This document shows positions 1,479 to 40,106 of a DNA stretch of 64,000 nucleotides, piece after piece. Made by a program: the position numbers and the translations under genes. How positions within the stretch are numbered: position 1 is the first letter of the stretch; each line of letters begins with the position of its first letter. The notes beneath the pieces were generated by a model. The model searched no databases, was not told the origin of the DNA, and worked only from the letters and a program-made list of their open reading frames with translations. Origin of the DNA: Clostridia bacterium. GTDB lineage: Bacteria > Bacillota > Clostridia > RGIG7378. The stretch lies in NCBI GenBank assembly GCA_017559445.1, contig JAFYSJ010000002.1, positions 36,087-100,086 on the forward strand. The letters are read 5' to 3'.

Positions 1479-1520
1479 CTCTAATTTTATATTCATCTGA
1501 TCTTAGGATCGTGGAGACAT

Positions 1521-1655
1521 TCACTAGCGCAGCGGCCTACTAGCGCTACAACGCGGCTCACTAGCGAATGCAATGAGCGGTTACTAGCAACGCAGTTGCG
1601 GCTCACTAGGCATAGCCGGTTCACTAACGAGCTTTGCTCGTGGTTCACTGACAAG
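1521..1655. repeat. Tandem array of CTAGTGAGCCGC-type mini-hairpin repeats (locus A, CACTAGCG orientation)
   Basis: Units cactagcgcagcggcc / tactagcgctacaacgcggctcactagcgaatgcaatgagcgg... The same family recurs at 15771, 18205, 20401, 42251 and 63537. This copy lies between the stop of the M20 gene and its terminator. Confidence 0.7.
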
Positions 1656-3042: not shown

Positions 3043-3058
3043 TTTTTTGCTCCTAGGC

Positions 3059-3796: not shown

Positions 3797-3797
3797 A

Positions 3798-4481: not shown

Positions 4482-4567
4482 TTTACCCTCTTTACGCAAG
4501 ACGTCACCAGCTAGGTTCTTAGCTGGTGATGTCATCGGTTCATATATTAGACTAAATGGTTTCTAAA

Positions 4568-22282: not shown

Positions 22283-22283
22283 A

Positions 22284-23663
22284 CTAATTCCAGAACTCCT
22301 TCATCTTGATTTTATCTTGCAAGAAGCTGCGCACCTCAAACATGGCTGTATAGGAAGGCAATACGAGCAATGTCTCGCCATCCTCCATTTGCTCAAGGAT
22401 CTGGTTCATGACCTCTGCAACGGACTTTGGTGTCTCCTGATACTCCACCTCAAGGCCTGCGTACTTTAATCGAACTGCCACGTCTGCTCCACGCATTCCA
22501 CAAGTGTACATGCCCTTTAGGTCATCTCCCAACTTCTCCAAATTCTCGAAGTTTACGTCCCAAAGCCATGAAATGTCCACTCCGTCTGCAATGTTGTCGT
22601 TTAAGGCAAAGCAAATGCGAAGGGGCTGCTTAACTTCCAACAAATAGTTAATTACCTGATTGTATCCCATGGGGTTCTTAACCAAAACTGTACGAACAGC
22701 CTTATTTCCAATGCGAACTGTCTCCATTCTGCCAAAACCAGGATTGCTGCTCTCCAAGGATGCTGACACCTGATCCCTGTCAAAGCCAAGTGCCTCACCA
22801 AAACCGATGGCGCCCATGGCGTTGTAAACGTTATAAAGGCCAGAAACCTTGATTGTGCAGTTATGTCTTGACTCTCCAATTGCATACGCAAACTCTGCGG
22901 AGTCAATGCTAAGCTTGTAGGAATCCATTTCCACCTGTAGTTCAGGTCTTGCATATCCACAAGCAGGACAATGGAACTTGCCCAAATGGCCGTAGGATGT
23001 GAATGCATACTCGAGCTTGGACTGGCATTTGATGCAATATCCTGCCTCCACCTCGCTGTTGCCACCATCCTTCACCTTAGCAGTGGAGTTGTCCATGCCG
23101 TAGTAAATAGCCTTGTTTGGCAAATCCGCTCCGATAGAAGCGCAGAGCTGGTCATCTCCGTTTAATACAAAGATTGCTTCCTTTGCCTTAGATGCACCTG
23201 TCTTAACAAGCTCCAAGGTATGTGTAACCTCGCCGTATCTATCTAGCTGGTCCTTAAAGAAATTGGTAACAACCAAAACCTTGGGGTTAAGTTTGTCTGC
23301 CACCTTTGCAAAAGCTGCCTCATCGCACTCAATTACTGCATGTGTGGGACCCTTTGGCTTGCCCATGACTGTAACGCCCTCAGCAAAGCATGCCACGATG
23401 CCTCTCTCCAAATTAGAGCCAGATCTGTTACTAATATATGGGATGCCCTGTCCGTCCAAAACGGCAGACATGAGCAAAGCTGTTGTTGTCTTACCATTTG
23501 TGCCTGAAACCACATATACATCGAAATCCTTGGCTAAACTGGTCAAAATGTCTGGACACACCTTCAGTGCCAACTTGCCGGGCAAAGCAGTGCCACCCCT
23601 GTGCAAAGTTCTCAGAACCCAGGTGGTAAATTTACATATCCATAGCGCTAATAAGTATCTCAT
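22284..23663 (-). CDS. murT: Lipid II isoglutaminyl synthase MurT (Mur ligase middle domain plus DUF1727)
   Basis: N-terminus MRYLLALWICKF...GGTALPGKLALKVCPD, P-loop SGTNGKTTT and Cys motif CIKCQ...CPACG. Start set at MRYLL. Confidence 0.75.
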   Translation of the reverse strand: MRYLLALWICKFTTWVLRTLHRGGTALPGKLALKVCPDILTSLAKDFDVYVVSGTNGKTTTALLMSAVLDGQGIPYISNRSGSNLERGIVACFAEGVTVMGKPKGPTHAVIECDEAAFAKVADKLNPKVLVVTNFFKDQLDRYGEVTHTLELVKTGASKAKEAIFVLNGDDQLCASIGADLPNKAIYYGMDNSTAKVKDGGNSEVEAGYCIKCQSKLEYAFTSYGHLGKFHCPACGYARPELQVEMDSYKLSIDSAEFAYAIGESRHNCTIKVSGLYNVYNAMGAIGFGEALGFDRDQVSASLESSNPGFGRMETVRIGNKAVRTVLVKNPMGYNQVINYLLEVKQPLRICFALNDNIADGVDISWLWDVNFENLEKLGDDLKGMYTCGMRGADVAVRLKYAGLEVEYQETPKSVAEVMNQILEQMEDGETLLVLPSYTAMFEVRSFLQDKIKMKEFWN

Positions 23664-23758
23664 GTGGTCTCCACTTCTGTGCAATTACACATATCTTAAC
23701 TGGAATATTATATACTTCCTACAGCATAAAGTAAACGAAGTAACGTGGGAGACACCCC

Positions 23759-25342
23759 TTGTCCTATCGCAAAATAAGCCTAAACACAAATTCTGTTGCA
23801 TATGGGGCCAGCATCCTCATGGGGTCCTCCATTGTGCTCAATTTGCTTGGGGTTATTTACCGCCTCATCCTAGCACGAGACCTTGGTTCTCAAGGCTTAG
23901 CACTTTACCAACTGACAATCTCCATTTACACCATTTTGTCCGGCATTGCTATTTCTGGATTTACAAGCAGTGTTTCCCAAGGTGCCTGCATTTTAAAAGG
24001 GTCTGGCCATAGCAAGGACATTCCATCCCTACTGCGTCACTGTGTCTTCTATTTCTTCGCCATTTACTCCATATTGTTGGTTGTGGTCTTGCCTCTTAGT
24101 CCATTCTTGGCCGAAACTTTTCTGGGAGGTAAAAGTCGCGCCACCTTAATTGCCCTGCTTTTTCCTTATATGCTTTTGACAGGAGTGGAAAACATCCACA
24201 AATCCCTGTTTCTAGGATTGGGTAAAAGTCTCCTTCCCAGTATTTCAGAAATTGTTGAACAAACAATCCGTATCCTTTTGTTCCCACAAATAATTTGGGT
24301 TGCCCATGCCTACTCACCAGACGCCAAGGCTACATGCCTTTTGGTTACCATGTTTTTAGGTGAAATCTTTGCCTCATCTTTTATGCTCTTGTCTTTCGCC
24401 CGGCACAAAGGAGAAATAACCACCGAAAAAGCTTTAGCCACTGCACCATGCGCAACCATTCCTAAGCTCATTCTCTCTATTGGCATACCAACTGCCACTG
24501 CTGGACTTGGAATTCGCATAATCTCCTCTGCCTGTAGCATCTTTATGCCCCAATGTCTCATGTGGTCAGGCCTTAGTCAACAGGAGGCTAACCATATATT
24601 TGGAACTTTTACTGGCATGACCATGCCCCTGATGACCATGTGCACTACGGTAACCTTGCCCCTCTTTACTGCTGTTATGCCTAAGATTAGTCAAGCAATG
24701 GCCGCTGGAAACATGGCCGTTTGCAGGCGAAAGTGCGGCAAATTTTTGCACATCAGTAGCATTGTTGTTTTGCCCTGCATGGCCATTCTCCTAATCTGCC
24801 CCAAGGAAATCTCTACCCTTTTGTATGGAGTCCCCTACCCAGGTGCCTTATGCCCCATGTTTGTCCCATGCATAACCCTATCACTTTTTGCCGGAGCTAC
24901 TACTTTTATGCTTTCTTCCATGGGATTCAATGGTATTTCTGGCGTTTTAGCAATTTCCAGTGGCATATTGCAACTTCTTAACCTGTGGTTGGGACCTGTA
25001 TTTCTTGGAAAAGGGCTTTTAGGTTATGCAATTTTAGAAACTCTTAACGACCTTACCATCCTTTCCATAGGGCTAAGACTCGTGTGCAAAAAAAGTGGTC
25101 TCAAAATCATGTGGCATAACTGGTTTATTAAGCCTATTCTAGCCCTACTGCCTGCTTTGCTTATGGCATATGGAGCATACTACTATTTGCGTAGCTACTC
25201 CCTATGGCTACAGGTCATAGCTACTTGCATTTTGCTATTTGGAACATATTTCTTTCTACTTATTTGCGTATGGAAAGTAAACATACGCCAATACCTTTTC
25301 TCGTTGCTGGACAAAAAAACACCCGAGGTTTCTCGGGTGTAG
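23759..25342 (+). CDS. MOP-superfamily flippase (SpoVB/MurJ-like polysaccharide or lipid II flippase)
   Basis: 527-aa protein with 14 predicted TM segments. The N-terminal helix LMGSSIVLNLLGVIYRLILARDLG is typical of this family. Probable TTG start at 23759 with RBS gggaga. Confidence 0.65.
   Translation: MSYRKISLNTNSVAYGASILMGSSIVLNLLGVIYRLILARDLGSQGLALYQLTISIYTILSGIAISGFTSSVSQGACILKGSGHSKDIPSLLRHCVFYFFAIYSILLVVVLPLSPFLAETFLGGKSRATLIALLFPYMLLTGVENIHKSLFLGLGKSLLPSISEIVEQTIRILLFPQIIWVAHAYSPDAKATCLLVTMFLGEIFASSFMLLSFARHKGEITTEKALATAPCATIPKLILSIGIPTATAGLGIRIISSACSIFMPQCLMWSGLSQQEANHIFGTFTGMTMPLMTMCTTVTLPLFTAVMPKISQAMAAGNMAVCRRKCGKFLHISSIVVLPCMAILLICPKEISTLLYGVPYPGALCPMFVPCITLSLFAGATTFMLSSMGFNGISGVLAISSGILQLLNLWLGPVFLGKGLLGYAILETLNDLTILSIGLRLVCKKSGLKIMWHNWFIKPILALLPALLMAYGAYYYLRSYSLWLQVIATCILLFGTYFFLLICVWKVNIRQYLFSLLDKKTPEVSRV
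25313..25340 (-). terminator. Terminator for the PC4-like gene, embedded in the 3' end of the flippase CDS
   Basis: Hairpin cacccgaggtttctcgggtg plus TTTTTTT on the minus strand. Confidence 0.55.
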
Positions 25343-25763: not shown

Positions 25764-27146
25764 TCAATTACCGCTTTGCAAGACCGAAATTGCGTCCACA
25801 ATAGGCTGAAGACTAGTTCTATAGAACAGTAGACCTGTTGCAAAGCCGTCGTCGTAAAGGAGATATTGTGCCCCCTGGTCGTCTAGACTTCTAAACTCAA
25901 GCTGTCTAGTCGTTCCATCTTTAAAATAATATGTAATCGCAAGATAATCTGTCTCCTCTACGGTGAGCAAGAAAATCTCATCTGCCTGTATCCATACGCC
26001 ACTTGTGTAAAGGCTAATAATGTCCTCGTAAGCAACTACTTTGTCGTTAAGCTTATAGATGAACTCGTCGCCCTCCTTAGAAATATCGACTCTGTATGTC
26101 AAATCTCCAAGCTTGTACTCAAATCCTGCCAAGGTCTTAATCTCAGCATAGTAGGCAACAGATGCAACTAAGCTAAAGGTTGTAATGTCCAAGAATCCCA
26201 TGTCGTACTGGTTGATCAAGAAAACATCGTCTTCGCCTTCATAGCAAGCATACATTTTACCATTACCACCAGTCTCTCTAGCAGAAACAAGTAATACTGT
26301 GGGGCTCTTGCCGTACTCCTGAACGTAGAGCTTATAAGATGGATTATCTAGACCGTACTTGGACAAGTCCTGACAATCCTTTTCCTCGATTGTCTGGTAC
26401 TGCAAGTTAACAAGATCTACAAGAAGACTATCCTCGATTGTTGTACGCTCTCCAAGGGCTGTAACTGGTGCAATTACCGCCCAGTTCTTTTCGCCCATTA
26501 CTTCGCGGCGAATATGCCAGATAAGCTCACCATTTCTAACAAAGGCAACTTCCTGTACTCTATCTTTTCTGTTAACGAACAAATAATCGGATGCAAGATT
26601 CTCAACAGTAAAAGCTTCGATGCTTTCAAAAACAGAATTTGAAACGATGTAAACTGTCCTACCACTATCTACTGTTGCGTAGTATCCACTGTTAGTAGGT
26701 GTAGCAGATCCAATGATTAACTCAACAACACCTTCCTCTGTACCATATTTAACCTGTGCTGTTGGCTTATCAAAACCATATACAGAAATATCTGCAGATA
26801 CCTCATCAAATTTAGACATGCCAACTACTGTAAGCAATGCAGAACAATACTTGTACGCATAGTAAGGATACTCTTCAAAAGTATTTGGATGTTCCTTAAT
26901 CCACTTAAAGTCCAAGGATTCATCATCTGAATAAGAGAAAATATATGTATCATTGCTATTTACAATAGTAATCTGCTTAAGTTCGCTTTCCTTGAAGTTA
27001 ATAATTGTCAAATCATCTCCGCCCTGAGTTACTTCAGGAGTTTTATCCCCAAAAATATCAAATACCTGGAATAGCAAGAAATAAACACCAACCATTAGAA
27101 TGGCGACAAACAATGTAATTATCAAAATCAAATTAGATTTCTTCAT
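25764..27146 (-). CDS. DUF4340-like protein with an N-terminal TM anchor
   Basis: 460 aa. N-terminal hydrophobic anchor and beta-rich repeats. Resembles DUF4340 proteins that usually accompany ABC-type export systems. Confidence 0.45.
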   Translation of the reverse strand: MKKSNLILIITLFVAILMVGVYFLLFQVFDIFGDKTPEVTQGGDDLTIINFKESELKQITIVNSNDTYIFSYSDDESLDFKWIKEHPNTFEEYPYYAYKYCSALLTVVGMSKFDEVSADISVYGFDKPTAQVKYGTEEGVVELIIGSATPTNSGYYATVDSGRTVYIVSNSVFESIEAFTVENLASDYLFVNRKDRVQEVAFVRNGELIWHIRREVMGEKNWAVIAPVTALGERTTIEDSLLVDLVNLQYQTIEEKDCQDLSKYGLDNPSYKLYVQEYGKSPTVLLVSARETGGNGKMYACYEGEDDVFLINQYDMGFLDITTFSLVASVAYYAEIKTLAGFEYKLGDLTYRVDISKEGDEFIYKLNDKVVAYEDIISLYTSGVWIQADEIFLLTVEETDYLAITYYFKDGTTRQLEFRSLDDQGAQYLLYDDGFATGLLFYRTSLQPIVDAISVLQSGN

Positions 27147-27222: not shown

Positions 27223-27254
27223 AAAAAAGCGTCCCTGTATTTCTACAAGGACGC
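27223..27254 (-). terminator. Terminator closing the carbohydrate-uptake locus
   Basis: Hairpin gcgtccttgtagaaatacagggacgc plus TTTTTT on the minus strand. Confidence 0.55.
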
Positions 27255-27272
27255 CAATTTATGTTTTACAAA

Positions 27273-28319
27273 TTATCCTACGATACCGGATCTCTCAACA
27301 GACTCAACGAAGAATCTCTGAGTGAAGATGTAGAGTACCAACAATGGAGCAGCTACGAGGATGCTACCAATGTTGTTAATCTGAGAAGCAAGAGCGTTAG
27401 GAATGTTGCCCTGCTCCAAAGCAGACTTGAATGCTACCCAGTATGTCTGTGCCAAGGAGTTCAATACCTTAGACATAACCTTTGTATTCTCAAGGAATAC
27501 GCCAGAGTAATATGTATCTGTCCACTGCCATACGAATGCGAACAAGAAGATAGATACGAGGATAGATACTGCGGAAGGAAGCATAACCTGAACGAAAGTT
27601 CTAAGGTTACCTGCGCCGTCTACGTATGCAGCCTCTTCAAGCTCCTTAGGAAGGTTACGGAAGTTCTGTCTAATCATGTAAATGTAAAGACCGTTCTTGT
27701 AACCCTGAGCTGTAAGACCAATCAATGCGAATGGAAGTGCGCTATCCAAAAGGTTTACTCTTGTGCAGAACAAGTAGTTAACGATTCCGAAGAAGTCGAA
27801 GTTCTGCATGTGCAAGGAGTATGTCAACTGGATTGTCTGTGGAGGAACAACCAAGCAAAGGATAACCAATGCGAATACAACGTTCTTACCAGGGAACTTA
27901 AATCTTGCAAAACCATAACCAACCAATGTACATGCAATTGTCTGTGTTACAGCAGCAAGGAGAGAAGTCCAAACTGTATTAACAATGATGTTGTTCTCCA
28001 TAGTTACTACCTGATCCTTAAGAACCAAGTCCCAGATACTCTTAAAGGTCTCAAGGGAAAGGTGCTTAGGAATGTAGATAACTGTTGTGTCATAAAGGTC
28101 AGCCTGTGATCTGATTGCTACTGAGAACTTAACAAACAGAGGATACAGGATGATGAAGCAGATACCGAATACGATTACGAAAAGGCCGATACCAACTCCA
28201 ACTTTGCCAAGCTTCTTCTTAATCTTAGCCTTCTGTCTTGTCCTATATTCTTCGGGAGTAAGGACTTCGTGAGTTACAGGATCAATGTACTTGCTTTTTA
28301 CTTCTGTAGTAGTAGACAT
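27273..28319 (-). CDS. Carbohydrate ABC transporter permease (MalG/BPD_transp_1-like)
   Basis: EAA motif LEEAAYVDGAGNLRTFVQVMLP. 348 aa with 6 TM segments. Confidence 0.8.
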   Translation of the reverse strand: MSTTTEVKSKYIDPVTHEVLTPEEYRTRQKAKIKKKLGKVGVGIGLFVIVFGICFIILYPLFVKFSVAIRSQADLYDTTVIYIPKHLSLETFKSIWDLVLKDQVVTMENNIIVNTVWTSLLAAVTQTIACTLVGYGFARFKFPGKNVVFALVILCLVVPPQTIQLTYSLHMQNFDFFGIVNYLFCTRVNLLDSALPFALIGLTAQGYKNGLYIYMIRQNFRNLPKELEEAAYVDGAGNLRTFVQVMLPSAVSILVSIFLFAFVWQWTDTYYSGVFLENTKVMSKVLNSLAQTYWVAFKSALEQGNIPNALASQINNIGSILVAAPLLVLYIFTQRFFVESVERSGIVG

Positions 28320-28336: not shown

Positions 28337-29818
28337 TTATCTCTCGTCGTAGTAGAATACGAACTTATTAACGATTGCAACAATCACAACCATGATCAAA
28401 CCAATGCAGAGGAAGTAAATCCAAGACATTGCGGAACCCAAACCGTAATCCATGTTTACGAAGCTGATGTCATAAATGAAGTCAAGGATTGAGCTGTAGG
28501 AGCTGTACTTATCTCCGATCTTAGCTGCGGATGTGAAGCAGTCTACAACAGTATAAACGATGTTTACAACGAAGTAGGGAGATACCATAGGAAGTGTAAT
28601 CTTCCAGAAATCTTCCCAACCTGTAGCACCTTCAATACTGGATGCCTCGTACAAGGATCTTGGAACTGACTGCAATGCTGCAAGGAATACCAAAATCTGT
28701 ACACCGGAAGCAGAAATGATGGAGTACAAGTTGTTAACAACTGCCATAACTACTGTAACGATTTTCTCAGGAATATTGAGGGCTGTGAGCATTGTCTGAA
28801 GCTCGAAAGCCTGCATGCCTGATGAACCACTGCTTGCTACCTGATTCTGGAAGCTGGCCTGCATTGCTGTCATCAATACGTCAGATGTCTCAATTGCAAG
28901 GATAACACCAGAAGTCAAAATAACTGGCATGAAGAATACGGCACGAACAAAACCTCTACCCTTGAAGGATCTGTTAAGCAATACAGCAGCGAAGAAGCTG
29001 AAGATTACAACAAGAGGAAGTGTTGTTGCCATGTTTGTGATAGATGTCAACAAGTAAGAAGAGAAGTTAACATCTACAAACAAAGCTCTGTAGTAGTTGT
29101 ATGGAACATAAATTGTTCCTGTAGCTGCCTGATACCAACCTGCGTTTGTGATTGTGTAACCACCAGTACCGTGTACGTCTACGATACTAAGGCTGAATAC
29201 CAAGGACTTAACAACAGGTGTAAGGAAGAAGAGCAAGAAACCAATGATAAATGGCAACAGGAACAAATAACCTGTAATAGCTCTCTTCTGAACCAATGTT
29301 GTCTGAACCTCATTGATGGGGCTGAAAATGTTAGCAAGAATTCCGATTACAAGCTGTAATGCGAATACTCCCACCATAACGAAGAGCCAAATTGTGAATG
29401 TGAACTTTGGCCAAGATGTGAAGCTATACTGAGTGTCTGCAGACAACTGAGCAATCTTCATTGCAAGACCATTATTCATCTCAACCATCAAGAGGACGGA
29501 AGCCAGGACTCCCACTCCGGATGCAGCAGCACCGAAGCGGAGACCATACTTGTTTTTAATGAAAAATGCAACTGTTGCAAGGATGGCACATGCTACGATT
29601 AAGATGCCGATATCCATTGTAACTGTCTGTGTTGAATCTCTAAGAATATCAAGAGAAGCAGCAAAATCGATGCCGGAAATCAGCTTCCAACCTGTGTAGC
29701 TTGTGAAGAACTTTCCACCATTAGTAACATTAACAAGTGGGAAGAACATGCATGCAATTGCTACGATTGAGCAAACTGTAACCAGTAAAGAATACGGTAA
29801 TTTCTTCAAAAATTTCAT
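28337..29818 (-). CDS. Carbohydrate ABC transporter permease (MalF-like, long form with an N-terminal extension)
   Basis: 493 aa. EAA-like motif SLYEASSIEGATGWEDFWKITLP. Carries extra N-terminal TM segments. Confidence 0.75.
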   Translation of the reverse strand: MKFLKKLPYSLLVTVCSIVAIACMFFPLVNVTNGGKFFTSYTGWKLISGIDFAASLDILRDSTQTVTMDIGILIVACAILATVAFFIKNKYGLRFGAAASGVGVLASVLLMVEMNNGLAMKIAQLSADTQYSFTSWPKFTFTIWLFVMVGVFALQLVIGILANIFSPINEVQTTLVQKRAITGYLFLLPFIIGFLLFFLTPVVKSLVFSLSIVDVHGTGGYTITNAGWYQAATGTIYVPYNYYRALFVDVNFSSYLLTSITNMATTLPLVVIFSFFAAVLLNRSFKGRGFVRAVFFMPVILTSGVILAIETSDVLMTAMQASFQNQVASSGSSGMQAFELQTMLTALNIPEKIVTVVMAVVNNLYSIISASGVQILVFLAALQSVPRSLYEASSIEGATGWEDFWKITLPMVSPYFVVNIVYTVVDCFTSAAKIGDKYSSYSSILDFIYDISFVNMDYGLGSAMSWIYFLCIGLIMVVIVAIVNKFVFYYDER

Positions 29819-29838: not shown

Positions 29839-32418
29839 TTACTTAGTTACCAAATAGCCCTGAGCATCAACAACAAATCCCTCACCGATGTAAGCGTCCT
29901 TGTTGTAGTTAACGATGATCTTAGTACCATTTGCGTATGTTGTACGGAATACATTATCTGCAAGAATCTCGTGGTTAGTGATCTCAACTGTCTGCAAATC
30001 CTTGAGAATGTTGTTAATCTCAACGTACTCCTCAGCAATTCTGCTTACCCAACCCTCATAATTTACGGAGTAGAGGAAGGAGAAGTCTGTCTTGGAAACG
30101 ATAGAGTTCTCAACATAAATCAATGTAGCGCTAAGAGAAGCACCAGTCTCAATAGTCTTGAGAATATTCTTTGTGTAGTTTGTGGACAAGTTCATATCTG
30201 CACCTGTGTAATCAACGTAGTTATGAACTACGATCTGATAGAATGGAACAGATACGTCTGTGCTGTTGAACTCGTTGCTTGTAAGAGAAGAATTAAGAAT
30301 AACGTCTGCACTTGCAAGTGTGTAATCATTACCTGTAAGAGTCATTACCTTATAGTTCTCAGCCATCTTTGCAAACAATGTTGTGTACAAATCTGCAGCC
30401 ATAGTTCTATCAAATGTGCTCTTTACATAGAAGTCAGAGTTAACATCCTTACCAAGAGTTCTAGCACTGATACCACCAATGTTGCCATAATCGTTCAAAA
30501 TCTCGATGTAGCTCTCTACATACTTCTGAACAGATGTTGGCTTTACGATGAACTTCTTGAAAAGCTTGTTATGCTGGTATGTTGCGATATCCAAGTCATA
30601 AGCAGGCTTTGTTGTTCTATCCAAGAAACGAATACTGTCTCTGAATGTTGTAAATCCATCGAACATCTTATCCTTGTGTGCATACTCGAAAGTTGCATCA
30701 AGGAACAATGTTTCATTCTTGCTGTTAAGGTAATCTGCCAATGCAAGCAAGTCCTTCTCGCCGCCCAAGCTCTTCTCTACCTTAACATTGTTTGTTACAT
30801 AGTGATTGTAACCGCCGTTCATCCATCCTACATAACGAACATCCAAGTTGAGAACACCAGCATTATACAATGCCTCTGTAATCTCCTTAGCCTGATCGAA
30901 TGTTGTCAATGGCTCACGAACTTTAACTGGCATACCGAATACAGTCTTAACTCTATCGATAGCACCTACGTATGTAACATAAAGTTCTGTGTTGTCATCA
31001 TAATCAGTCTGGTTAAGAAGGTTATTCTTAAGCAAGTACTCTCTGTATGCCTTAGCCATGCCTGCGTAAGATGCTTCATCACCAGACAAGAATGTGTAGT
31101 TAAGCACGATATTTGTCTGACAGATTGTCTCCTGATATACGTTTCTGGAGTTCTTACCATCCAAGCTGGACAAGTCAAGGGAGTTGAACTGAATCATGTA
31201 GAATGTTGCATATACGTTGTTATAGCTGTATCTATAACCTGCAACCTCTGCGGAAATCTTAGCAACTGCTGCACCATCTTCAATAATTGTAAGGAATGCA
31301 TTGTTACCTTCCTTAATACCATATACTGGCATTGTAATCTGGTCGTAAGACTGGAAAGTCTCCTTAATGTTTGTGGACTTATCCAAACCATATACGTTGT
31401 TCATATATGTAGGAGCAACCATGTTGCCATTGTTGAGATAAATCAATGCGCCAGAAGCATCTGGAACGAAGATATATCCCTCTTCCTCTGTCTCAGCATA
31501 TGCTGCGTCAAAGAAAGGTGCAACGGAAATTGTGTACAATGGGAATGTTGGATTGTACTGAATATCCTTTGCCTTGCAGTCGATAACGAAATTGCCATCA
31601 ACAAGCTTGTAATCAACTGTAACAATGAAGTAGGGAGTTGTAATTTCCTTCTCATCACCAAGTGTGATATCGAGCTTATTATCAATCTCCTTCTGCTCCT
31701 CTGTGTAGTTAAGAGTTGCAAAAACGGCCTCAACTTCATCCTTAATATAATCCTGCAAACCGTTACGCAAGATTCTCAAGTTCTGCTCTGCCAATGTTGG
31801 GAACTGTGCAAGATCCTCTGGTGTTGCTGTATCTGCTGTTGCAAGACGATATCTCTTCTTAAGAGTCTTAGCACCCTCGTCATCGCCATTTGCTTCCAAT
31901 GTAGCAACATAAGCATCAAAGTCTGCCTCTGTCATAACAGAAGGCATGAGCCAAAGCTTCTGGAATACACCAAGTGTATAAACAGCTCTTACACCATCCT
32001 CAATAGCATAATACTTTGTAGCATCCTTATACTCATTAGAGTACATGTTCTTAGCTGTTGCGCTGTCAAAGTAAGACAACAAAATTGGAGACTTCTGAGT
32101 GAGCTTGTTAATACCAGATGTTGCTGTAACAGAATCTGTATCCAATGTTGCTGGGAACAAATAGTGATACTCACCTGTTGTCTTATCAAGAATAGCAATG
32201 TTGGAATCATCCTGCTTAAGGAACATAGCCAACTTATCATTCTCGTAAGCACCCTCAAAACCATCCAAGGAAGTGGAGAGTTTAACAGCTGTAAACTCTT
32301 CCAATCCTTCAGCAGGATCAAACATCTCTCCTGCCTCTGCTGCAAATGCAGATGTGAATGTTGTGAACAACATTCCAAGTACAAGCAGCATACTGATTAA
32401 AGATTTAAAATTCTTCAT
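29839..32418 (-). CDS. Large secreted protein of unknown function (859 aa), possibly carbohydrate-active
   Basis: Signal peptide MKNFKSLISMLLVLGMLFTTFTSAFA. No LPXTG motif and no TM segment. Embedded between sugar permeases. No recognisable catalytic motif was identified. Confidence 0.55.
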   Translation of the reverse strand: MKNFKSLISMLLVLGMLFTTFTSAFAAEAGEMFDPAEGLEEFTAVKLSTSLDGFEGAYENDKLAMFLKQDDSNIAILDKTTGEYHYLFPATLDTDSVTATSGINKLTQKSPILLSYFDSATAKNMYSNEYKDATKYYAIEDGVRAVYTLGVFQKLWLMPSVMTEADFDAYVATLEANGDDEGAKTLKKRYRLATADTATPEDLAQFPTLAEQNLRILRNGLQDYIKDEVEAVFATLNYTEEQKEIDNKLDITLGDEKEITTPYFIVTVDYKLVDGNFVIDCKAKDIQYNPTFPLYTISVAPFFDAAYAETEEEGYIFVPDASGALIYLNNGNMVAPTYMNNVYGLDKSTNIKETFQSYDQITMPVYGIKEGNNAFLTIIEDGAAVAKISAEVAGYRYSYNNVYATFYMIQFNSLDLSSLDGKNSRNVYQETICQTNIVLNYTFLSGDEASYAGMAKAYREYLLKNNLLNQTDYDDNTELYVTYVGAIDRVKTVFGMPVKVREPLTTFDQAKEITEALYNAGVLNLDVRYVGWMNGGYNHYVTNNVKVEKSLGGEKDLLALADYLNSKNETLFLDATFEYAHKDKMFDGFTTFRDSIRFLDRTTKPAYDLDIATYQHNKLFKKFIVKPTSVQKYVESYIEILNDYGNIGGISARTLGKDVNSDFYVKSTFDRTMAADLYTTLFAKMAENYKVMTLTGNDYTLASADVILNSSLTSNEFNSTDVSVPFYQIVVHNYVDYTGADMNLSTNYTKNILKTIETGASLSATLIYVENSIVSKTDFSFLYSVNYEGWVSRIAEEYVEINNILKDLQTVEITNHEILADNVFRTTYANGTKIIVNYNKDAYIGEGFVVDAQGYLVTK

Positions 32419-32450: not shown

Positions 32451-34829
32451 TTATCTAAATGAAAGTTCACGATAGATAACGTATACGAAGCCCCATACCT
32501 GCTGCAAGATACTGAAGAACAGTACGCCGATGAAGATAATAATTACGGCTGCAAGCAAGATTACGAGAGTTACCAACATTGTCTTAGCAAATGAGTACTG
32601 GTGAGTAATCATTGTACCAACAACAATCAGCAAACCTGCCCAAACCAATCCGAAGATTGCGAGGAATGAGTGGATAGCACCTTCCTCAAGTGTTACACAG
32701 TAGCTGAGCAATACATTTGGAATGTAGAGCACTGGGATTGGCAACAATGCGTAGCAGGATGCCATAAAGATCTGCTTCATGTTTCCTTCGCCGTCCAACA
32801 AAGTTGTTGTACACCAGTTAGCAATTACCCACAAAGCCAAAGGTGCAAGTACTGCCAAGAACTCAATCCAAATATTAATCTTAGTTACATCGTTCTTGTT
32901 AAATGTGAATGATGTAAGCTGCTTCTGAAGAATCAAGGAGAAGATTGTAAGGGCAACGATGCCAATTGCAATCCAGATGTTTCCTCTGTTTTCCATCTTA
33001 AGTTCATAGAATCCCTTAACTGGGTTAAGCATATTCCTAAATGCAAATTTGATCTTCTCGCTTAAGCACTGTGGATCCTTAGCGGGCTTACCCTCTGGAC
33101 CATACTTCTTAAGAATCTGCTTCTTGCGAATTGCCTTGAATACTGCAATAGCAATTACAAGTACGAGAGCACATGTCATGAATGGACCGAATGCGTCATC
33201 AATCAACTCACTTCTTCTCTGCTTCCAAGCATTGGAGTAGTTTGTCTTCTTGTCGCCCAGCTTGAAGTACTTCATAGCTGTGTCGTAGTTCTTGTTCATG
33301 TACTCAACTCGGCCTACACCGATGTAAGCAAGCTGGAAGTTTGCGTTGTGGTAATCAATAATCTCCTGCCACAACTTTGCTGCATCATCCCACTTACCTT
33401 CATCCTGAAGTGCAAGAGCCTGGAGGATGTATCCGCCGTACTCAGTAATCTGGAACAAGGATACATAACCAGTTGTCTGGTCAAGTACCATCATGTCTGT
33501 ACCAAGGTACTCAATGGATACTGGCTTCTTGAATGTACCAGCTCTGATACCCAAGCCGCCGAAAATATAGAGGAGGTTACCATCCTGGTCGTATGTGAAA
33601 ACACGTCCTCTTGTGGAGTCCAATACGGAGTATACACCGTTGTTGGAACCATTGTTCAAAAGTGCTACGTCAACAATTCTGGATACACCAGCCTGCTCTG
33701 TTGCGTAGTAGTCAACCTGAACGTCTCCACCAGGAGCGAACCATGATGTTCTATAAAGAACGTCATTACCCAATGGGTTAAGTCTCTTTACAGAAGCATA
33801 ACGGTCGTCGTCTGTACCTGATGTAATATGTGCCTGGAACTCATACTGAGATACAGAAGAAGATGTTACGTAGATGAAGGACTTATCATCAATAGCAACG
33901 GAACTGTACTCAGAAGGAGTGAATGTAGCCTGTCTAGCTCTCTGCTCTCTGGTCATGAACCATCTCTTAATAACCTGGAAAATGGAAACACGAACCTTAG
34001 CTCTGCCGAAGAATGCTGTGAAGTTACCATCAGCATCAAACTTAAGCAAACCAGAAGTTACGTTCTTAGCAGCTACATAAAGTCTACCACCATCATCAAC
34101 TACCAAGGAGATTGGATAGTAAACATAGCCTGCTTCGAAGAGGTCGGACTCTGGAGCACCCAAAAGTCTTAAAACATCGTACTCCTTAGTCTCTTCGTTT
34201 AATCTGAAATGTACGATTCTAGAGTTGTTTGTATCACAAACATAGAATGTACCATCATTATCTACGAACATACCCTGAGGCTCACAGAACTGATACTGCT
34301 TACCCTCAAATGTATAGCCTGTAATTTCTCCAACAAGTGTCCAAGCATCTGGGTTCTCAGTCTTGTAAGAGAAAATCAAAAGACGACCCTTAGGAGTTGT
34401 ATCTACAACATCCTCTGTTGAGTCTGTTGTAACATCTGTTGTTACGTCTGTTGTTGCATCAGTTGTAACGTCTGTTGTTACATCACCTGTCTCATCAACA
34501 GTAGCAACACCCTCATCTGTTGTTACATCAGTTGTTGTATCACCTGTTACAGGAGCAATCCACTTAGAATCCAAGTAGTAGATCAAGTTGTTTGCTTCGT
34601 CACAAATAATAGCAACTGGATAAACAACAGGAGAATCTACGCCTTCAATCTTAGATACATCGATAACGGATGATACCTCGTATGCTGGTGGAGCGTAGAG
34701 AACATTCTTTGTAGAACTATATGTATAGTTAGAGAATGCTGCTGTTTCAGCAAAAGCTGGATAACAGCTAGATACCAACATAACAACAAGGAGAATTAAT
34801 GTTGAAATTTTAATTAATGCTTTCTTCAT
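32451..34829 (-). CDS. Fusion protein: signal peptide, a (T-D-V-T)n linker, an NHL-like beta-propeller, and a C-terminal Yip1-like multi-TM domain
   Basis: 792 aa, starting at MKKALIKIST with RBS aggagg. NHL-like blades (YVCDTNNSRIVHF, LYVAAKNVTSGLLKFDADGN). The C-terminal roughly 230 aa has 5 or more TM segments, Yip1-like. Low-complexity TTDVTTDATTDVTTDVTTD stretch. Confidence 0.5.
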   Translation of the reverse strand: MKKALIKISTLILLVVMLVSSCYPAFAETAAFSNYTYSSTKNVLYAPPAYEVSSVIDVSKIEGVDSPVVYPVAIICDEANNLIYYLDSKWIAPVTGDTTTDVTTDEGVATVDETGDVTTDVTTDATTDVTTDVTTDSTEDVVDTTPKGRLLIFSYKTENPDAWTLVGEITGYTFEGKQYQFCEPQGMFVDNDGTFYVCDTNNSRIVHFRLNEETKEYDVLRLLGAPESDLFEAGYVYYPISLVVDDGGRLYVAAKNVTSGLLKFDADGNFTAFFGRAKVRVSIFQVIKRWFMTREQRARQATFTPSEYSSVAIDDKSFIYVTSSSVSQYEFQAHITSGTDDDRYASVKRLNPLGNDVLYRTSWFAPGGDVQVDYYATEQAGVSRIVDVALLNNGSNNGVYSVLDSTRGRVFTYDQDGNLLYIFGGLGIRAGTFKKPVSIEYLGTDMMVLDQTTGYVSLFQITEYGGYILQALALQDEGKWDDAAKLWQEIIDYHNANFQLAYIGVGRVEYMNKNYDTAMKYFKLGDKKTNYSNAWKQRRSELIDDAFGPFMTCALVLVIAIAVFKAIRKKQILKKYGPEGKPAKDPQCLSEKIKFAFRNMLNPVKGFYELKMENRGNIWIAIGIVALTIFSLILQKQLTSFTFNKNDVTKINIWIEFLAVLAPLALWVIANWCTTTLLDGEGNMKQIFMASCYALLPIPVLYIPNVLLSYCVTLEEGAIHSFLAIFGLVWAGLLIVVGTMITHQYSFAKTMLVTLVILLAAVIIIFIGVLFFSILQQVWGFVYVIYRELSFR

Positions 34830-34839
34830 TTTGTCCTCC

Positions 34840-35751
34840 TTACTTAATACCTGAAGATGCCATTGTCTCAACAACGTTGGACTCTGTCAGCATGAACATT
34901 ACGATAGGAACGATCATGATGAATACGGCTACAGCAGAACCTGCACCCTGTCTAGCTACACCACCAGCCAAAATCTGGTTAAGAGCATAAGGCAAAGTCT
35001 TGAACTGCTCACTGAATACGTATACACCACCAGTTGTGTTCCAGAGAGACTGGAAGGAGAAGATAATCAATGTGAGCCAAGCTGGCTTAACGTTGGGCAT
35101 CGCAATGCTCCAGTAAACTCTGAACTCGTTTGCACCGTCGATACGAGCGGATTCGCAAAGAGCTGTTGGAAGTCCTTCCATGAACTGCTTCATAAGGAAG
35201 AGACCCATTGTGCTGGCAAATGCTGGAACTACAAGAGCAAGGTATGTATCCAACCATCCCAAACCAGAAAGAATCAAGTAGTTAGGAATGTATGTAACAG
35301 TTGCTGGGAACATCAAAGCCCAAATAACAGCTGTGAACAAGAAGTTCTTGCCAGGGAACTCATGCTTAGCCAATGCGAAAGCTGCCATTGAAGCCAAGAA
35401 CAAGTGTCCAATTGTACCGCATGCTGTAATGAATACGGTATTGAAAATGTATCTTGAGAATGGAACCCAAGACTCAGACATGATAATGAACAAGTCACTA
35501 AAGTTGTCCAATGTAGGGTTACGAGCAAAGAATCTCGGAGGGAATGCGAACAGCTCATCCATAGGCTTAACGGAGTTACTGATTGCATATACGAAGGGCA
35601 AAAGCATGAAGATACCTACGCCGATAAGCATTGCCATAATTGCTACGTCGCCGCCAACGGATCTGTTAGGCTTTCTTCTGCGGATAAACTTGCCTCCGAT
35701 CTTTGTTACTTTTTCTTCTTTAATTTTAGGTTCTTTAGCTTTTCTTGCCAT
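34840..35751 (-). CDS. Carbohydrate ABC transporter permease (MalG-like)
   Basis: EAA-like motif ESARIDGANEFRVYWSIAMP. 303 aa. Confidence 0.8.
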   Translation of the reverse strand: MARKAKEPKIKEEKVTKIGGKFIRRRKPNRSVGGDVAIMAMLIGVGIFMLLPFVYAISNSVKPMDELFAFPPRFFARNPTLDNFSDLFIIMSESWVPFSRYIFNTVFITACGTIGHLFLASMAAFALAKHEFPGKNFLFTAVIWALMFPATVTYIPNYLILSGLGWLDTYLALVVPAFASTMGLFLMKQFMEGLPTALCESARIDGANEFRVYWSIAMPNVKPAWLTLIIFSFQSLWNTTGGVYVFSEQFKTLPYALNQILAGGVARQGAGSAVAVFIMIVPIVMFMLTESNVVETMASSGIK

Positions 35752-35752
35752 A

Positions 35753-36700
35753 TCAAGTACCTACTTTCTGGAGAAGATTTTGAATCAGTCTGTTAAGACC
35801 GAGACAAGCGCCAAACAACAGAACGGCGATTGCAGATGCGTAGCCCATTTCGAATCTAACATCACCATAGTCCTGAAGGTGGTTAACAATTGTGTGTACC
35901 GCATAGTCTGTGCTGGGGAATCCACACATAGCTGTCATGATGTCTGCTGCACCGAATGTGGATGTAATAGACATAACAGCTGCGAACAACAACTGAGGCT
36001 TCATTGAAGGAAGTGTGATATACCACAACTCCTGCCATCTGTTGCTGATACCGTCAACATATCCAGCCTCGTAAAGCTCCTTATCGATACCCTGCAAACC
36101 AGCTACGTGAGACAAGAAGCCAGCGCCCAAGGAACTCCAAAGAGCAACAACGATACATACAAACATCATAGTCTTAGTATCTGTTGTCCACTGAACGGCC
36201 TTGTTGATAATACCCCAGTTCATAAGAACACCGTTAATCCAACCGTAAGAGTCACCAGAGAACATGATGCTCCATACCATGTAAACCTGACCTGAAATTG
36301 TAGGTGCATAGAATACAAGGATCATGATAGCTCTTACCTTAGGAGGAAGTTCGTTAATGAACCATGCAAATACGAATGCTGCCAAATAGCCCAAGGGGCC
36401 AGTAATAATAGCGAAAATAAATGTATTCTGAATAGCGAGGATGAATACATCGTCATGCAGGAAAAGGTTGAGGAAGTTAGTCCAACCTATAAACTGCGGT
36501 GCCTCCAAGATATTATAGTAAGTAAAGCTATAATATACGGAGATAATAACAGGTACGATTGTGAACATTACGAAGAGAATGTAGTAAGGCATCAAGAACA
36601 AATAGGATGCCTTGCTCTCCTTAATGCGACCCCAGAGAGTCCATTTCTTCTCGTAATCTTTGAGTTCACGTCTTTTCTTTGTAGCAACTGCTGTACTCAT
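35753..36700 (-). CDS. Carbohydrate ABC transporter permease (MalF/UgpA-like)
   Basis: EAA-like motif ELYEAGYVDGISNRWQELWYITLP. 315 aa. Confidence 0.8.
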   Translation of the reverse strand: MSTAVATKKRRELKDYEKKWTLWGRIKESKASYLFLMPYYILFVMFTIVPVIISVYYSFTYYNILEAPQFIGWTNFLNLFLHDDVFILAIQNTFIFAIITGPLGYLAAFVFAWFINELPPKVRAIMILVFYAPTISGQVYMVWSIMFSGDSYGWINGVLMNWGIINKAVQWTTDTKTMMFVCIVVALWSSLGAGFLSHVAGLQGIDKELYEAGYVDGISNRWQELWYITLPSMKPQLLFAAVMSITSTFGAADIMTAMCGFPSTDYAVHTIVNHLQDYGDVRFEMGYASAIAVLLFGACLGLNRLIQNLLQKVGT

Positions 36701-36725
36701 TGTTTACTCCTTTCGAAATGTCTCT

Positions 36726-39700
36726 CTAGTTTCCGTTCTTACCAGCTGCAATATCATCAGCAGTTGGAAGTCCGAACTCAATACGCTTATTTGTAATTTC
36801 GTCATTGATTGTACGCAAGTACTCAATCAATGTTTCACGAGGGTCAACCTTGTTATATACGCACTTTCTGAATGCGTTAGAAAGGTGACGGCTTGTGAAG
36901 TAGCTACCAGGCAACTGTGGAATACCCTGTGCCCAATCCCACTGCTCAAGAATCATTGCGTGATCCTTAGTTGTCCAGGAGATCTGGTCAAATGCCTCAA
37001 GGTTTGCTGTTGCATATCTTGCAGCAGAACCCATAACGGACTCAAGGTTCTTACCGAACTTAACCTGAGTATCTGCAGATGTCCACCACTTCATGAACTC
37101 CCAAGATGCATCAGGATCCTCTGTAGCAGCAAGCATCATACATGCATTACCTGCAGAAGCAACGCTTCTGTCGATATATGTGTTACCGTTCTCGTCTACG
37201 CGCTCAACGCCAGGAACGAGGGACCAGTTCCACTTACCTCTGATTTCGGGAGCGAATACAGACAATGTGTTGTACAAGCTGTAGTCGGAAATACCAATTG
37301 GCATCTCACCGATTCTGAAACGGTTAAGGAAGTCATAAGTTACTTCGCAACCGTAGTCTGTATAGAACAAGCAAAGAAGCTTAAATGCCTCGATAGCCTC
37401 ATCGCTATCCATAGCTGTCTGTGTACCATCATCTGTATAAAGCTGTCCGCCATGCTGATACAAGAACATGGAGTAAATAGACAATGTAGTAGCTACGTCA
37501 GACATGGAAGCAAGACCGAATGCCAAGTTGTGCTCAGCCAAGTCAGGAAGGATGTTAATAACATCTGTCCATGTGTTAGGAACCTCAATGTTAAGTTCGT
37601 CCAAAACGTCTGTTCTGTAGAACAACATTGGGAATGTCTCTGTCTCAGGCAATCCGTAAACACCAACGTGTCCATTTGCGCCCTCAAACTTAAGAGCCTC
37701 AAGAGCACTGTCGTTAAATCTCTTAGCGATTTCCTCATAATCATCGAACTGAGTCAAATCGTAAGCTGCGCTACGGATAGCATAGTTAACAGGTTCTGTG
37801 CACCATACCTGAACAACAACGTCAGGACCGATACCAGCAACTACAGCAGGAAGAAGGTTACCACCTGTAACCAACTGAAGGTTAACGTAGATGGGGTGAC
37901 CAGATGCCTCTGTGTTAGGAACAAATGTATCGTCGATCAAAGCCTTAAGGATGTTGGACTGGTCACGACCAGTTGTGATCCAAACTCTAACGCTAGAAGA
38001 ATTACCATCCTCCTCGTAAACGTTACCGATAGAGCTGTAATCGTTGAAGAAGGAGTTAATAAATGCGCTAAACTCGTGAGCAATGCTCTGCCACCATCTA
38101 TCGTGTGCACGAGGAAGCTCAGCAATCTGATCCTCAGATGTTACATAGAAGCAATCCATCTCCAATGGAGTAGATGCCATGTTAATCATCCATGTAGACA
38201 AAGAACCGATGTTTGTCTTGAGCTGATCCAAAGCTTTTGGAATATTCTCAGGCTTTGCAACCAACTGTCTAAGCTGCTTAGAAAGAGTCTGAAGTGTACC
38301 TACCTTATCACCCTTTTCACCATCTGTAAGGATAAGGAGGTCTTCAATCATCTTATCAAGTTCGTTTGCTGTATTCTCGAAGATGAGGATAACGCCAGGA
38401 AGCTTCTTATCAAGCTGATAGTCAGCATATGTATCAGGAGTTGTACCTGTAATCATCAAAATCTTACGATAGCAAACGTTAAGCAAGTTAACGAGCTCGT
38501 TAGCCTTAGTGATCAATGTTGTCATGTCACCAATAGAAGCCTCGAGTCTGATTGTATGTGTACCCTTTGTCAAATAGAAAGTATATGGATTACCTGCATC
38601 GTCGCCGATTGTCATGTTAACCCACTTATTTTCGTACTCAAACTGAAGATTCTCGCACTCTGCAAATGGTACGGAACCATCAATTGTAAGGATACGTGTA
38701 GAATAGTTACCTCTTGCGATATTCTGTCTGTACTTAAGAGTCAAGCAGTAAAGGCCATCCTCTGGTACTTCAATAACGTACTCAATCCACTGACCAGATG
38801 TATTCCAAGTCTCACCACCAATTGTGTTGTATCTAATCTTGGAAACGCTGTAAGGTGTAACGTTAGCAGAAGATCTGTTGCTCTGAGCAATCAAAGTTGT
38901 GGAGGATGTGCGGTTTGTAAGCTCAGCCTCATACTTCTTGAAATAACCATCAACAACGTTCTTGTTTGTCAACTGACTAAGATATGTCTCGTATGTAGGT
39001 GCAGATACTCTATTTGCAATAGTAATCTGACCAATAACAACGGGCTCCTTAGTAGCCTCAAATGTAATTGTGTTCTCGCCTGCCTCAAGGTAGAAGTAAT
39101 ATGGCTCTACATAATAACCGTTAGGGTCAGTAATGTATGCGCCATTCCAAATTGGATCTTCAACCAGTCCAGGACGAATGTCATTGTCTCTGTTATCTAC
39201 TGCAAATCCTGTAACGGGATTCTTGTTAGTTGCAGTAACTTCCTTATTCTTCCATGTGCGCACGAACAACACTGTACCTGCATCAAAGAAAGGCAACTCG
39301 CCGTTGATCAAGAACTTACGCTCTGCATCAGATCCCTTGCCCTCTGTGGGAGAATATTCTACGAATACCTGGTAAAGTCCAGATGTCTGAACAGTGAACT
39401 TGTATGTAACACTGGATACCTCGTCTGTCTTGACTGCAGATCCGCCCTTATAACCGTTGTAATTATCAACAACGGAGAAACCATAAGAGTTCTCTGTATC
39501 CAAGTCAGCAGGTGTTACCTTAATAACATCTGTAGGCTTAACTGTAGACTTAACATGGCTAATGTAGTATGCATAAGAATTCATATCGATGTACGCAGGG
39601 TCATTCAATATGCTCTCAATAGTAATACCTTCGCCTGTAAAGTCGTCAGAGCCTACATCTCCAGTGGAATCAACTTCACCATTCGCTGAATTTCCTGCAT

Positions 39701-39791
39701 CTGTGTCTGCTGCAAATGAAACTGCTACACCTGCAACACAAACAATTGTCAATGCCAAGAAAACAGCAATGAATTTGGTCCATTTTGACAT
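36726..39791 (-). CDS. Giant secreted protein (1021 aa): N-terminal unknown domains of about 560 aa fused to a C-terminal domain resembling a family-1 carbohydrate solute-binding protein
   Basis: Signal peptide MSKWTKFIAVFLALTIVCVAGVAVSFA. The C-terminal half (VRVWITTGRDQSNILKALIDDTF...WNWSLVPG...) resembles sugar solute-binding proteins. It is the first gene of the locus, with RBS gaggaagaga. Confidence 0.6.
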   Translation of the reverse strand: MSKWTKFIAVFLALTIVCVAGVAVSFAADTDAGNSANGEVDSTGDVGSDDFTGEGITIESILNDPAYIDMNSYAYYISHVKSTVKPTDVIKVTPADLDTENSYGFSVVDNYNGYKGGSAVKTDEVSSVTYKFTVQTSGLYQVFVEYSPTEGKGSDAERKFLINGELPFFDAGTVLFVRTWKNKEVTATNKNPVTGFAVDNRDNDIRPGLVEDPIWNGAYITDPNGYYVEPYYFYLEAGENTITFEATKEPVVIGQITIANRVSAPTYETYLSQLTNKNVVDGYFKKYEAELTNRTSSTTLIAQSNRSSANVTPYSVSKIRYNTIGGETWNTSGQWIEYVIEVPEDGLYCLTLKYRQNIARGNYSTRILTIDGSVPFAECENLQFEYENKWVNMTIGDDAGNPYTFYLTKGTHTIRLEASIGDMTTLITKANELVNLLNVCYRKILMITGTTPDTYADYQLDKKLPGVILIFENTANELDKMIEDLLILTDGEKGDKVGTLQTLSKQLRQLVAKPENIPKALDQLKTNIGSLSTWMINMASTPLEMDCFYVTSEDQIAELPRAHDRWWQSIAHEFSAFINSFFNDYSSIGNVYEEDGNSSSVRVWITTGRDQSNILKALIDDTFVPNTEASGHPIYVNLQLVTGGNLLPAVVAGIGPDVVVQVWCTEPVNYAIRSAAYDLTQFDDYEEIAKRFNDSALEALKFEGANGHVGVYGLPETETFPMLFYRTDVLDELNIEVPNTWTDVINILPDLAEHNLAFGLASMSDVATTLSIYSMFLYQHGGQLYTDDGTQTAMDSDEAIEAFKLLCLFYTDYGCEVTYDFLNRFRIGEMPIGISDYSLYNTLSVFAPEIRGKWNWSLVPGVERVDENGNTYIDRSVASAGNACMMLAATEDPDASWEFMKWWTSADTQVKFGKNLESVMGSAARYATANLEAFDQISWTTKDHAMILEQWDWAQGIPQLPGSYFTSRHLSNAFRKCVYNKVDPRETLIEYLRTINDEITNKRIEFGLPTADDIAAGKNGN

Positions 39792-39916
39792 GTCTCTTCC
39801 TCGCTTTGTGTGTATTTCTTAGGCTTTCGTCGCTTTCTACAAAAACAAAGAAAACCCCGTTCAGTTTAGCACGGGATTTGGGAAAAGTCAACAATTAAAA
39901 GGGGGAAAATATATCA

Positions 39917-39938
39917 ATTGTGACAAAAAAGTCACAAT
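39917..39938. promoter_or_regulatory. Perfect inverted repeat ATTGTGAC-N6-GTCACAAT in the divergent promoter region between the sugar locus and the M23 peptidase gene
   Basis: attgtgacaaaaaagtcacaat, with 8-bp arms (TGTGA-N8-TCACA core). Confidence 0.45.
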
Positions 39939-40106
39939 TTAGGAATTAACATAAATATAGATTTGTATATAAGAATAATACCCCTACAGTTATTCAATGT
40001 CAATAAAACAAGGGCCTTCTTTTGCACTTATTTTTGTGAATTTACAATATCTTTGACACCGCCATTTTGTATATATATAATTTTCCTTCAGGAGGATTAT
40101 GGAAAC

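Follow-up and report, generated by a model that had tools for sequence, protein, structure and literature searches.

A seven-gene operon headed by a large solute-binding protein

The window analysed here is a stretch of 64,000 nucleotides (nt) from a Clostridia bacterium (assembly GCA_017559445.1, contig JAFYSJ010000002.1), and this work concerns one gene on its minus strand together with the operon that this gene opens. The gene encodes a protein of 1021 amino acids (aa) with an ATP-binding cassette (ABC) solute-binding domain in its C-terminal part and about 590 further residues in front of it; we refer to it as the big SBP (solute-binding protein). The open reading frame (ORF) described in an initial annotation, made from the sequence alone, was confirmed. 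Its start codon is an ATG, which is preceded by the ribosome-binding site motif GAGGAAGAG. The operon has the order big SBP, permease 1, permease 2, NHL/TPR/Yip1 protein, DUF5696 protein, permease 3 and permease 4, with intergenic gaps of 25, 1, -35, 32, 20 and 17 nt, and comprises the following features.

36726..39791, minus strand: big SBP gene, 1021 aa, stop codon included (ORF; full-length homologues at 42-86% identity)
35753..36700, minus strand: permease 1, MalF/UgpA type (BPD_transp_1; UgpA/GlcT-like; orthologous position in all related loci)
34840..35751, minus strand: permease 2, MalG/UgpE type (family searches; locus comparison)
32451..34874, minus strand: NHL beta-propeller/TPR/Yip1 membrane protein, 807 aa (Pfam NHL, TPR_16 and Yip1; predicted transmembrane segments)
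29839..32418, minus strand: secreted DUF5696 protein, 859 aa, a GH129-like candidate glycosidase
28337..29818, minus strand: permease 3, MalF/UgpA type, 493 aa (family searches; transmembrane prediction; locus comparison)
27273..28319, minus strand: permease 4, MalG/UgpE type (family searches; locus comparison)
27228..27255, minus strand: intrinsic-terminator-like hairpin at the operon end, with a 12-bp stem and a T-run

The C-terminal part of the big SBP is a CUT1 solute-binding domain

The protein was divided into the regions below on the basis of family searches, sequence conservation and a structural model.

39711..39791, minus strand: N-terminal hydrophobic segment, residues 1-27 (hydropathy peak at residues 7-25; no lipobox)
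39525..39710, minus strand: acidic leader of low conservation, with the first part of the fold, residues 28-89 (model confidence; 22% mean pairwise identity)
39018..39524, minus strand: CBM6/35-like beta-sandwich 1, residues 90-258, with a conserved loop insertion of ~58 aa
38535..38942, minus strand: CBM6/35-like beta-sandwich 2, residues 284-419 (BLASTP; a CBM_6 match in homologue P0015; AlphaFold2 model)
38037..38531, minus strand: predicted four-helix bundle, one beta-strand and one helix, residues 421-585 (AlphaFold2 model)
36729..37946, minus strand: CUT1 (family 1) ABC solute-binding domain, residues 616-1021 (Pfam SBP_bac_8 and SBP_bac_1; PDB sequence matches)

The initial annotation had likened the C-terminal part to family-1 sugar-binding proteins, and this is borne out. 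In searches with hidden Markov models (HMMs), where the similarity might have failed to hold, both Pfam families scored above their cutoffs: SBP_bac_8 with 58.1 bits (cutoff 27) over residues 647-914, and SBP_bac_1 with 52.3 bits (cutoff 26) over residues 615-909, the latter spanning 10-306 of the 307 profile positions. When the PDB was searched by sequence, every match was a sugar-binding protein of the CUT1 type, within residues ~600-996, and the best match was Lin1841 (5ysb; E 3.7e-11, residues 602-918). The gene context agrees, as two genes of the MalF/MalG type (BPD_transp_1) follow the SBP gene, with gaps of 25 nt and 1 nt. By HMM and by gene context, the big SBP belongs to the CUT1 SBP family. 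The lipobox typical of Gram-positive SBPs is absent from it; since a lipobox is typical and not defining, the membership stands. The C-terminal ~410 aa belong to the same Pfam families as the CUT1 SBPs Lin1841, which binds beta-1,2-glucooligosaccharides, and Lmo0181 (5f7v), and MalF/MalG-type permeases follow. Ordinary CUT1 SBPs are ~400-450 aa long and, in Gram-positives, are lipoproteins; the big SBP differs from them by ~590 extra N-terminal residues with three folded domains and by the missing lipobox.

Predicted anatomy of the N-terminal module

No Pfam or NCBIfam family reached its threshold over the first ~590 residues, in which the initial annotation had likewise seen no motif, and NCBIfam gave nothing for the big SBP as a whole. 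Residues 28-620 were modelled with AlphaFold2 on an alignment of 70 homologues, which yielded a mean predicted local distance difference test (pLDDT) of 88.4 and a predicted template modelling score (pTM) of 0.85. The leader has a pLDDT below 50 at roughly residues 28-50 (model residues 1-23), and a value of ~88 is reached by residue 77. Two beta-sandwiches are predicted to follow. They match each other in BLASTP (E 3e-6, 25% identity) and, judged by this match, are internal duplicates; the loop insertion of sandwich 1 has the family consensus DNRGNDLRPxQVExPxWQ, with invariant D/N/P/W residues. The helical region splits into the four-helix bundle (~421-539) and the strand with its helix (~543-582), and no informative structural neighbour of the bundle was found in the fold search. 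The connecting stretch ~586-615 is conserved (55% pairwise identity) and was modelled with low confidence in the fragment.

With Foldseek, the model of the N-terminal module matched the CBM35 (CBM, carbohydrate-binding module) of CsxA, 2vzp, with a template modelling score (TM) of 0.76, normalised to 2vzp, and a probability of 1.00; the output does not specify whether sandwich 1 or 2 was aligned. The predicted beta-jelly-roll can be superposed on solved members of CBM35 and CBM6, and among the structural neighbours this fold is overwhelmingly tied to carbohydrate binding. The sequence link is weak (2vzp, E 0.012). In the window protein neither CBM_35 nor CBM_6 reaches the Pfam cutoff, and Golvesin_C stays below its own (22.4 against 31.6). 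Two homologues, P0050 and P0058, barely reach the CBM_35 cutoff of 28 (28.1 and 29.0); the region of P0015 homologous to sandwich 2 matches CBM_6, which in some homologues falls just under its cutoff. As the window protein has the CBM35/6 fold in the model and lacks the sequence match, we name its sandwiches CBM6/35-like and do not count them as members. Full-length Cry protoxins (8w7n, 9h9a) and Vip3 toxins also appear among the Foldseek matches, at E ~1e-6 to 1e-4. These matches probably reflect shared domain types, and their low TM values of 0.12-0.18 argue against an overall relationship to the toxins.

The N-terminal half had been described as beta-rich and as rich in Y, W, N and T. Both descriptions hold in part. 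About 305 aa are beta-sandwich in the model, while ~165 aa form an alpha-helical bundle, a conserved domain that the initial annotation had missed; Y, N and T are modestly enriched, while W makes up 1.1% of the half compared with 2.5% of the SBP domain.

Compared with CBM35 and CBM6 modules such as those of Xyn30D (CBM35, 4qb1) and CsxA, the sandwiches are attached to the binding protein of a transporter and not to an enzyme, are paired duplicates apparently packed rigidly with a helix bundle, include the conserved ~58-aa insertion in sandwich 1 and, in the window protein, lie below the Pfam cutoffs.

The big SBP belongs to a large family with a fixed architecture

The N-terminal module (residues 85-585) was searched with phmmer against 1.84 billion cluster representatives (50% identity). 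Relatives numbered 1884 at E<=1e-3, 878 of them at E<=1e-30, and the best 150 matches are almost all proteins of ~950-1000 aa in which the module has the same position. A word-indexed search with the big SBP gave 1142 relatives, the best 120 being nearly all 913-1022 aa long; where public names are given, they are the generic "extracellular solute-binding protein". When species were scanned with one genome each, at least 519 genomes carried a relative, some of them in two copies. The best 80 genomes are from Paenibacillus, Cohnella, Lederbergia, Halalkalibacter, Neobacillus, Lachnospiraceae, Herbinix, Mobilitalea, Anaerotaenia and Hungateiclostridiaceae. Such a fusion had been thought rare; the number of cluster representatives and species genomes, nearly all with one fixed architecture of ~970 aa, speaks otherwise. 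Free-standing or differently fused N-terminal modules were considered and rejected, as the longer matches still end in an SBP domain. The shorter matches, which cover the N-terminal part only, seem to be gene calls that were truncated. As a gene, the big SBP is ordinary among the members of its large, catalogued family, and the system around it is widespread and uncharacterised.

Mean pairwise identity is 47-60% in every domain, the helix bundle included, and the leader alone is variable (22%). This similar conservation of all domains marks the N-terminal module as an old and fixed part of the protein, and not as a CBM gained recently and joined by a flexible linker. The model further suggests that the domains of the module are packed rigidly together, a point that the initial annotation had also missed.

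N-terminus, export and retention

Residues 1-27 could serve as a Sec signal, cleaved possibly at SFA|AD, or else as a signal-anchor. A motif scan for the lipobox [LVI][ASTVI][GAS]C found none in the big SBP, and among the 70 homologues there was a single match, at residue 10 of P0115, probably by chance; the earlier statement that the protein has no lipid anchor is upheld. A basic, hydrophobic N-terminal segment is present in all listed homologues save a few shorter, probably N-truncated entries. In the clade of the window protein, SFA|AD is a plausible site for signal peptidase I. Several other homologues, read by eye, have a long hydrophobic segment in which no AxA site is obvious; this suggests a signal-anchor in the membrane.

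These observations bear on a role in cell-wall docking, an alternative raised in the initial annotation, in which the signal peptide would be cleaved and the CBM-like domains would bind the cell's own wall polysaccharide, making the protein an unusually anchored SBP. The missing lipobox and the plausible SFA|AD site would fit this role. The initial annotation had named a wall-binding or S-layer homology (SLH) module as the finding that would render the protein routine. Such a module was looked for, and no SLH, LysM, CW_binding or SH3 module was found by Pfam in the N-terminal region, even at E<=1; the structural neighbours are CBMs and not SLH. The signal-anchor suggested by several homologues also argues against this role, and wall polymers differ between Bacilli and Clostridia, yet the sandwiches are 47-57% identical. 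We consider cell-wall docking improbable.

Conservation of the cassette in related loci

The proteins of the window were compared with 84 related loci by tblastn. NHL, Yip1 and DUF5696 lie on the same strand and at fixed offsets in all 78 of the 78 loci with at least 8.5 kb of downstream sequence, and the order bigSBP-perm1-perm2-NHL-Yip1-DUF5696-perm3-perm4 is identical in 71 loci; the loci outside these 71 are mostly truncated copies or have extra or split permease matches. Gene calls in Paenibacillus, Lederbergia, Lachnospiraceae and metagenomic contigs confirmed the layout. This invariant seven-gene cassette, with its second permease pair, NHL/Yip1 protein and GH129-like protein, had escaped the initial annotation. 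Permeases 3 and 4 each have orthologues across the loci and differ from permeases 1 and 2. NHL and Yip1, fused in the window, are two adjacent genes in most relatives (among them the five more distant loci that have gene calls: L001, L002, L003, L085 and L086), and the true start of the fused gene is probably the ATG at 34829. Permease 3 has 493 aa in the window and in a near relative, L004, as against ~284-326 aa in the other lineages examined; its extra ~170 N-terminal residues contain ~4 predicted transmembrane segments.

An ordinary lipoprotein SBP of ~450 aa is encoded directly upstream of the cassette in 64 of the 84 loci, mostly from Paenibacillus and other Bacilli, and, in the three Clostridial loci whose flanks are long enough, immediately after permease 4. 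That it is a recent duplicate of the binding domain of the big SBP was rejected (BLASTP E 0.18). In L001 the ordinary SBP is closest to the arabino-oligosaccharide-binding protein 6rjy (E 5.7e-11), a weak hint of arabinose- or xylose-containing glycans which we do not take as an assignment.

The genes that recur upstream of the cassette, counted over 75 loci, form a carbohydrate-utilisation context:

Sugar-sensing histidine kinase/AraC-type response regulator/sensor-SBP triads: ~22-25 of 75 loci
LacI regulators: 16 of 75 loci
GH43 genes: 23 of 75 loci
GH43-CBM6 genes: 8 of 75 loci
MsmX-like ATPases: 11 of 75 loci

AraC regulators also occur among the neighbours in relatives, and GH10 and GH5 genes are also found near the cassette in L001.

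With SBP-like sensors accompanying the kinase/regulator pairs in those ~22-25 loci, and a second, ordinary SBP often in the cassette that could do the transport, the big SBP might be a sensor or co-receptor that reports glycan availability to a regulator and not a transport SBP. Against this, the MalF/MalG-type pair always stands directly after the big SBP gene, the two-component systems, where present, have their own separate sensor SBP, and in the window no regulator or kinase gene adjoins the cassette. A sensor role is in our view very improbable.

A secreted GH129-like partner

The DUF5696 protein has a signal peptide. A PDB search with the single sequence gave no match, nor did NCBIfam; the family profile matches DagB (E 7.7e-7) and NagBb (E 6.7e-6). 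The beta-sandwich/TIM barrel/C-terminal beta domain layout described for DagB (PMC5698469) is matched by that of DUF5696; the protein resembles GH129 both in its three-domain fold, with a central TIM barrel, and by profile. Residues D346, D662 and E757 show 93-98% conservation across the family, and interpolating the profile alignment puts the GH129 Asp nucleophile (NagBb D435/DagB D486; PMC5698469) at D662, a candidate for the equivalent residue. The protein is only 15-16% identical to the alpha-N-acetylgalactosaminidase NagBb (5wzn) and the 3,6-anhydro-D-galactosidase DagB (5opq), and its family is a separate one in Pfam with an extra helical insertion. We regard it as a remote homologue of GH129, not a demonstrated member, and as a candidate glycosidase. 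A full-text literature search found no paper on DUF5696.

Proposed role of the big SBP

The reading we favour, with somewhat better than even confidence, is that the big SBP is the surface capture subunit of a CUT1 importer, its CBM-like stalk holding a glycan and its SBP domain passing products on. We infer the glycan binding and the order of events as follows. The protein would be exported by means of its N-terminal hydrophobic segment, which would then be kept as a membrane anchor or cleaved. At the cell surface the stalk would bind a polymeric or large oligomeric glycan and hold it beside the DUF5696 glycosidase; the SBP domain would catch the released sugar or oligosaccharide and hand it to permeases 1 and 2. 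Transport would be powered by an ATPase encoded elsewhere, by sharing of the MsmX type, and the second permease pair may work with an ordinary SBP where one is present. The SBP scores, the confident model of the N-terminal module, the invariant cassette and the carbohydrate-utilisation neighbours all argue for capture and import.

Several points weigh on the other side. There is no ATPase gene within the operon, and an ordinary SBP was not found anywhere in the window; the window protein lacks a CBM_35 or CBM_6 match at the Pfam cutoff, tryptophan is not enriched in its N-terminal half, and the neighbouring carbohydrate-active enzymes (CAZymes) differ between taxa. Finally, the N-terminal module is apparently rigid and as conserved as the SBP domain, while typical CBMs sit on flexible linkers. 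With such packing and conservation, a structural or protein-docking role fits equally well.

The module might, in other words, be chiefly a protein-protein docking stalk that joins the SBP with NHL-Yip1, DUF5696 and the permeases and retains a lipid-less SBP at the membrane. The invariance of the cassette (78 of 78 loci), the apparent rigidity of the module (pTM 0.85) at SBP-level conservation, a helix bundle without glycan-binding precedent, the conserved loop insertion of sandwich 1 with its invariant D/N/P/W residues, the absence of a lipid anchor and the Yip1 protein next to a YknX/FtsX-type ABC system in L085 (see below) are all consistent with it. The overwhelming association of the CBM6/35 fold with carbohydrate binding among the structural neighbours tells against it, and as the chief function docking appears to us doubtful though a serious alternative. 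It is compatible with glycan capture, and the two are not mutually exclusive; cell-wall docking and the sensor role are less likely. Glycan capture and docking could be joined in a Gram-positive surface machine for capture, cleavage and import, in which the stalk would dock with NHL-Yip1 and DUF5696. The machine as a whole would feed two distinct ABC permease pairs and would be a functional analogue of the Bacteroidota "utilisome", with an ABC importer at its centre. We put this forward tentatively, as it is unlikely to hold in full.

Comparison with known systems

Surface capture, extracellular cleavage and import encoded in one locus would liken the cassette in concept to the Sus-like systems of Bacteroidota. 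The proteins are unrelated, the importer is an ABC transporter in a Gram-positive envelope and not a SusC/D TonB-dependent transporter, and the putative capture module is part of the same polypeptide as the binding protein of the transporter itself.

YknW is the Yip1-domain protein of the YknWXYZ ABC system of Bacillus subtilis, a MacB-type exporter. The cassette resembles it in that a Yip1-type membrane protein is encoded, and presumably acts, with an ABC transporter; it differs in that Yip1 carries or accompanies an extracellular NHL propeller, inside an importer cassette. Upstream of the cassette in L085 (positions 1265-5394) lies a cluster of Yip1, YknX-like, ABC ATPase and FtsX/MacB genes, which independently pairs a Yip1-domain protein with an ABC system.

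The full-text search found no paper describing the architecture of the big SBP or the cassette. What is new is an ABC importer SBP with a built-in, double-CBM-like stalk, placed in a rigid cassette with a GH129-related family. If the reading as a capture subunit is true, hundreds of soil and gut species of Bacillota (Paenibacillus, Bacillaceae, Lachnospiraceae, Hungateiclostridiaceae) carry an unstudied, self-contained glycan-uptake module with three untapped parts: an SBP with CBM-like domains built in, a new family of GH129-related glycosidases and an NHL/Yip1 membrane component. Defining its substrate would add a CAZy-type family and would explain how a lipid-less SBP is retained at a Gram-positive surface. 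For annotation, a recognisable system would take the place of the labels "extracellular solute-binding protein" and "DUF5696".

Other features of the locus

Two further features flank the operon, one on either side.

39975..40003, minus strand: candidate sigma-70-type promoter TTGACA-17-TATTAT upstream of the operon (consensus scan, 11/12 matches)
25764-27146, minus strand: DUF4340 protein with a transmembrane anchor, 460 aa, after the strong terminator

Promoter-like matches of this kind are a pattern only, their frequency here being not above that in shuffled sequence. A perfect 9-bp inverted repeat with the look of an operator, AATTGTGAC-TTTTTT-GTCACAATT, lies at 39916-39939, after the candidate promoter and ahead of the SBP start codon. 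A conserved operator AATTGTGAC-N6-GTCACAATT was rejected, as the core pattern occurs in 0 of the 84 related loci.

The DUF4340 gene, for which NCBIfam gave nothing, sits in the slot of the ordinary SBP of Clostridial relatives and is separately transcribed. It was rejected as a part of the system, since the strong terminator divides it from permease 4. Only in the window and in L004, the near relative, was it seen after the cassette; most flanks of the other loci end near permease 4. Further downstream are housekeeping cell-wall genes: a MurT-like ligase together with a glutamine amidotransferase of the CobQ type (the MurT/GatD pair for lipid II amidation), which adjoin a Polysacc_synt/MurJ-like flippase gene (21518-23684, minus strand, and 23759-25342, plus strand).

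Near the N-terminus of the NHL/Yip1 gene, a 12-nt tandem repeat at 34407-34497 encodes a T/D/V-rich (TTDV-like) low-complexity tract. Two long ORFs lie antisense to operon genes. One of 1009 aa (36660-39689, plus strand) is opposite the big SBP gene, and its Cys/Val/Leu-rich translation gives it the appearance of a shadow ORF and not of a gene; the other, of 809 aa (29971-32400, plus strand), is opposite the DUF5696 gene.

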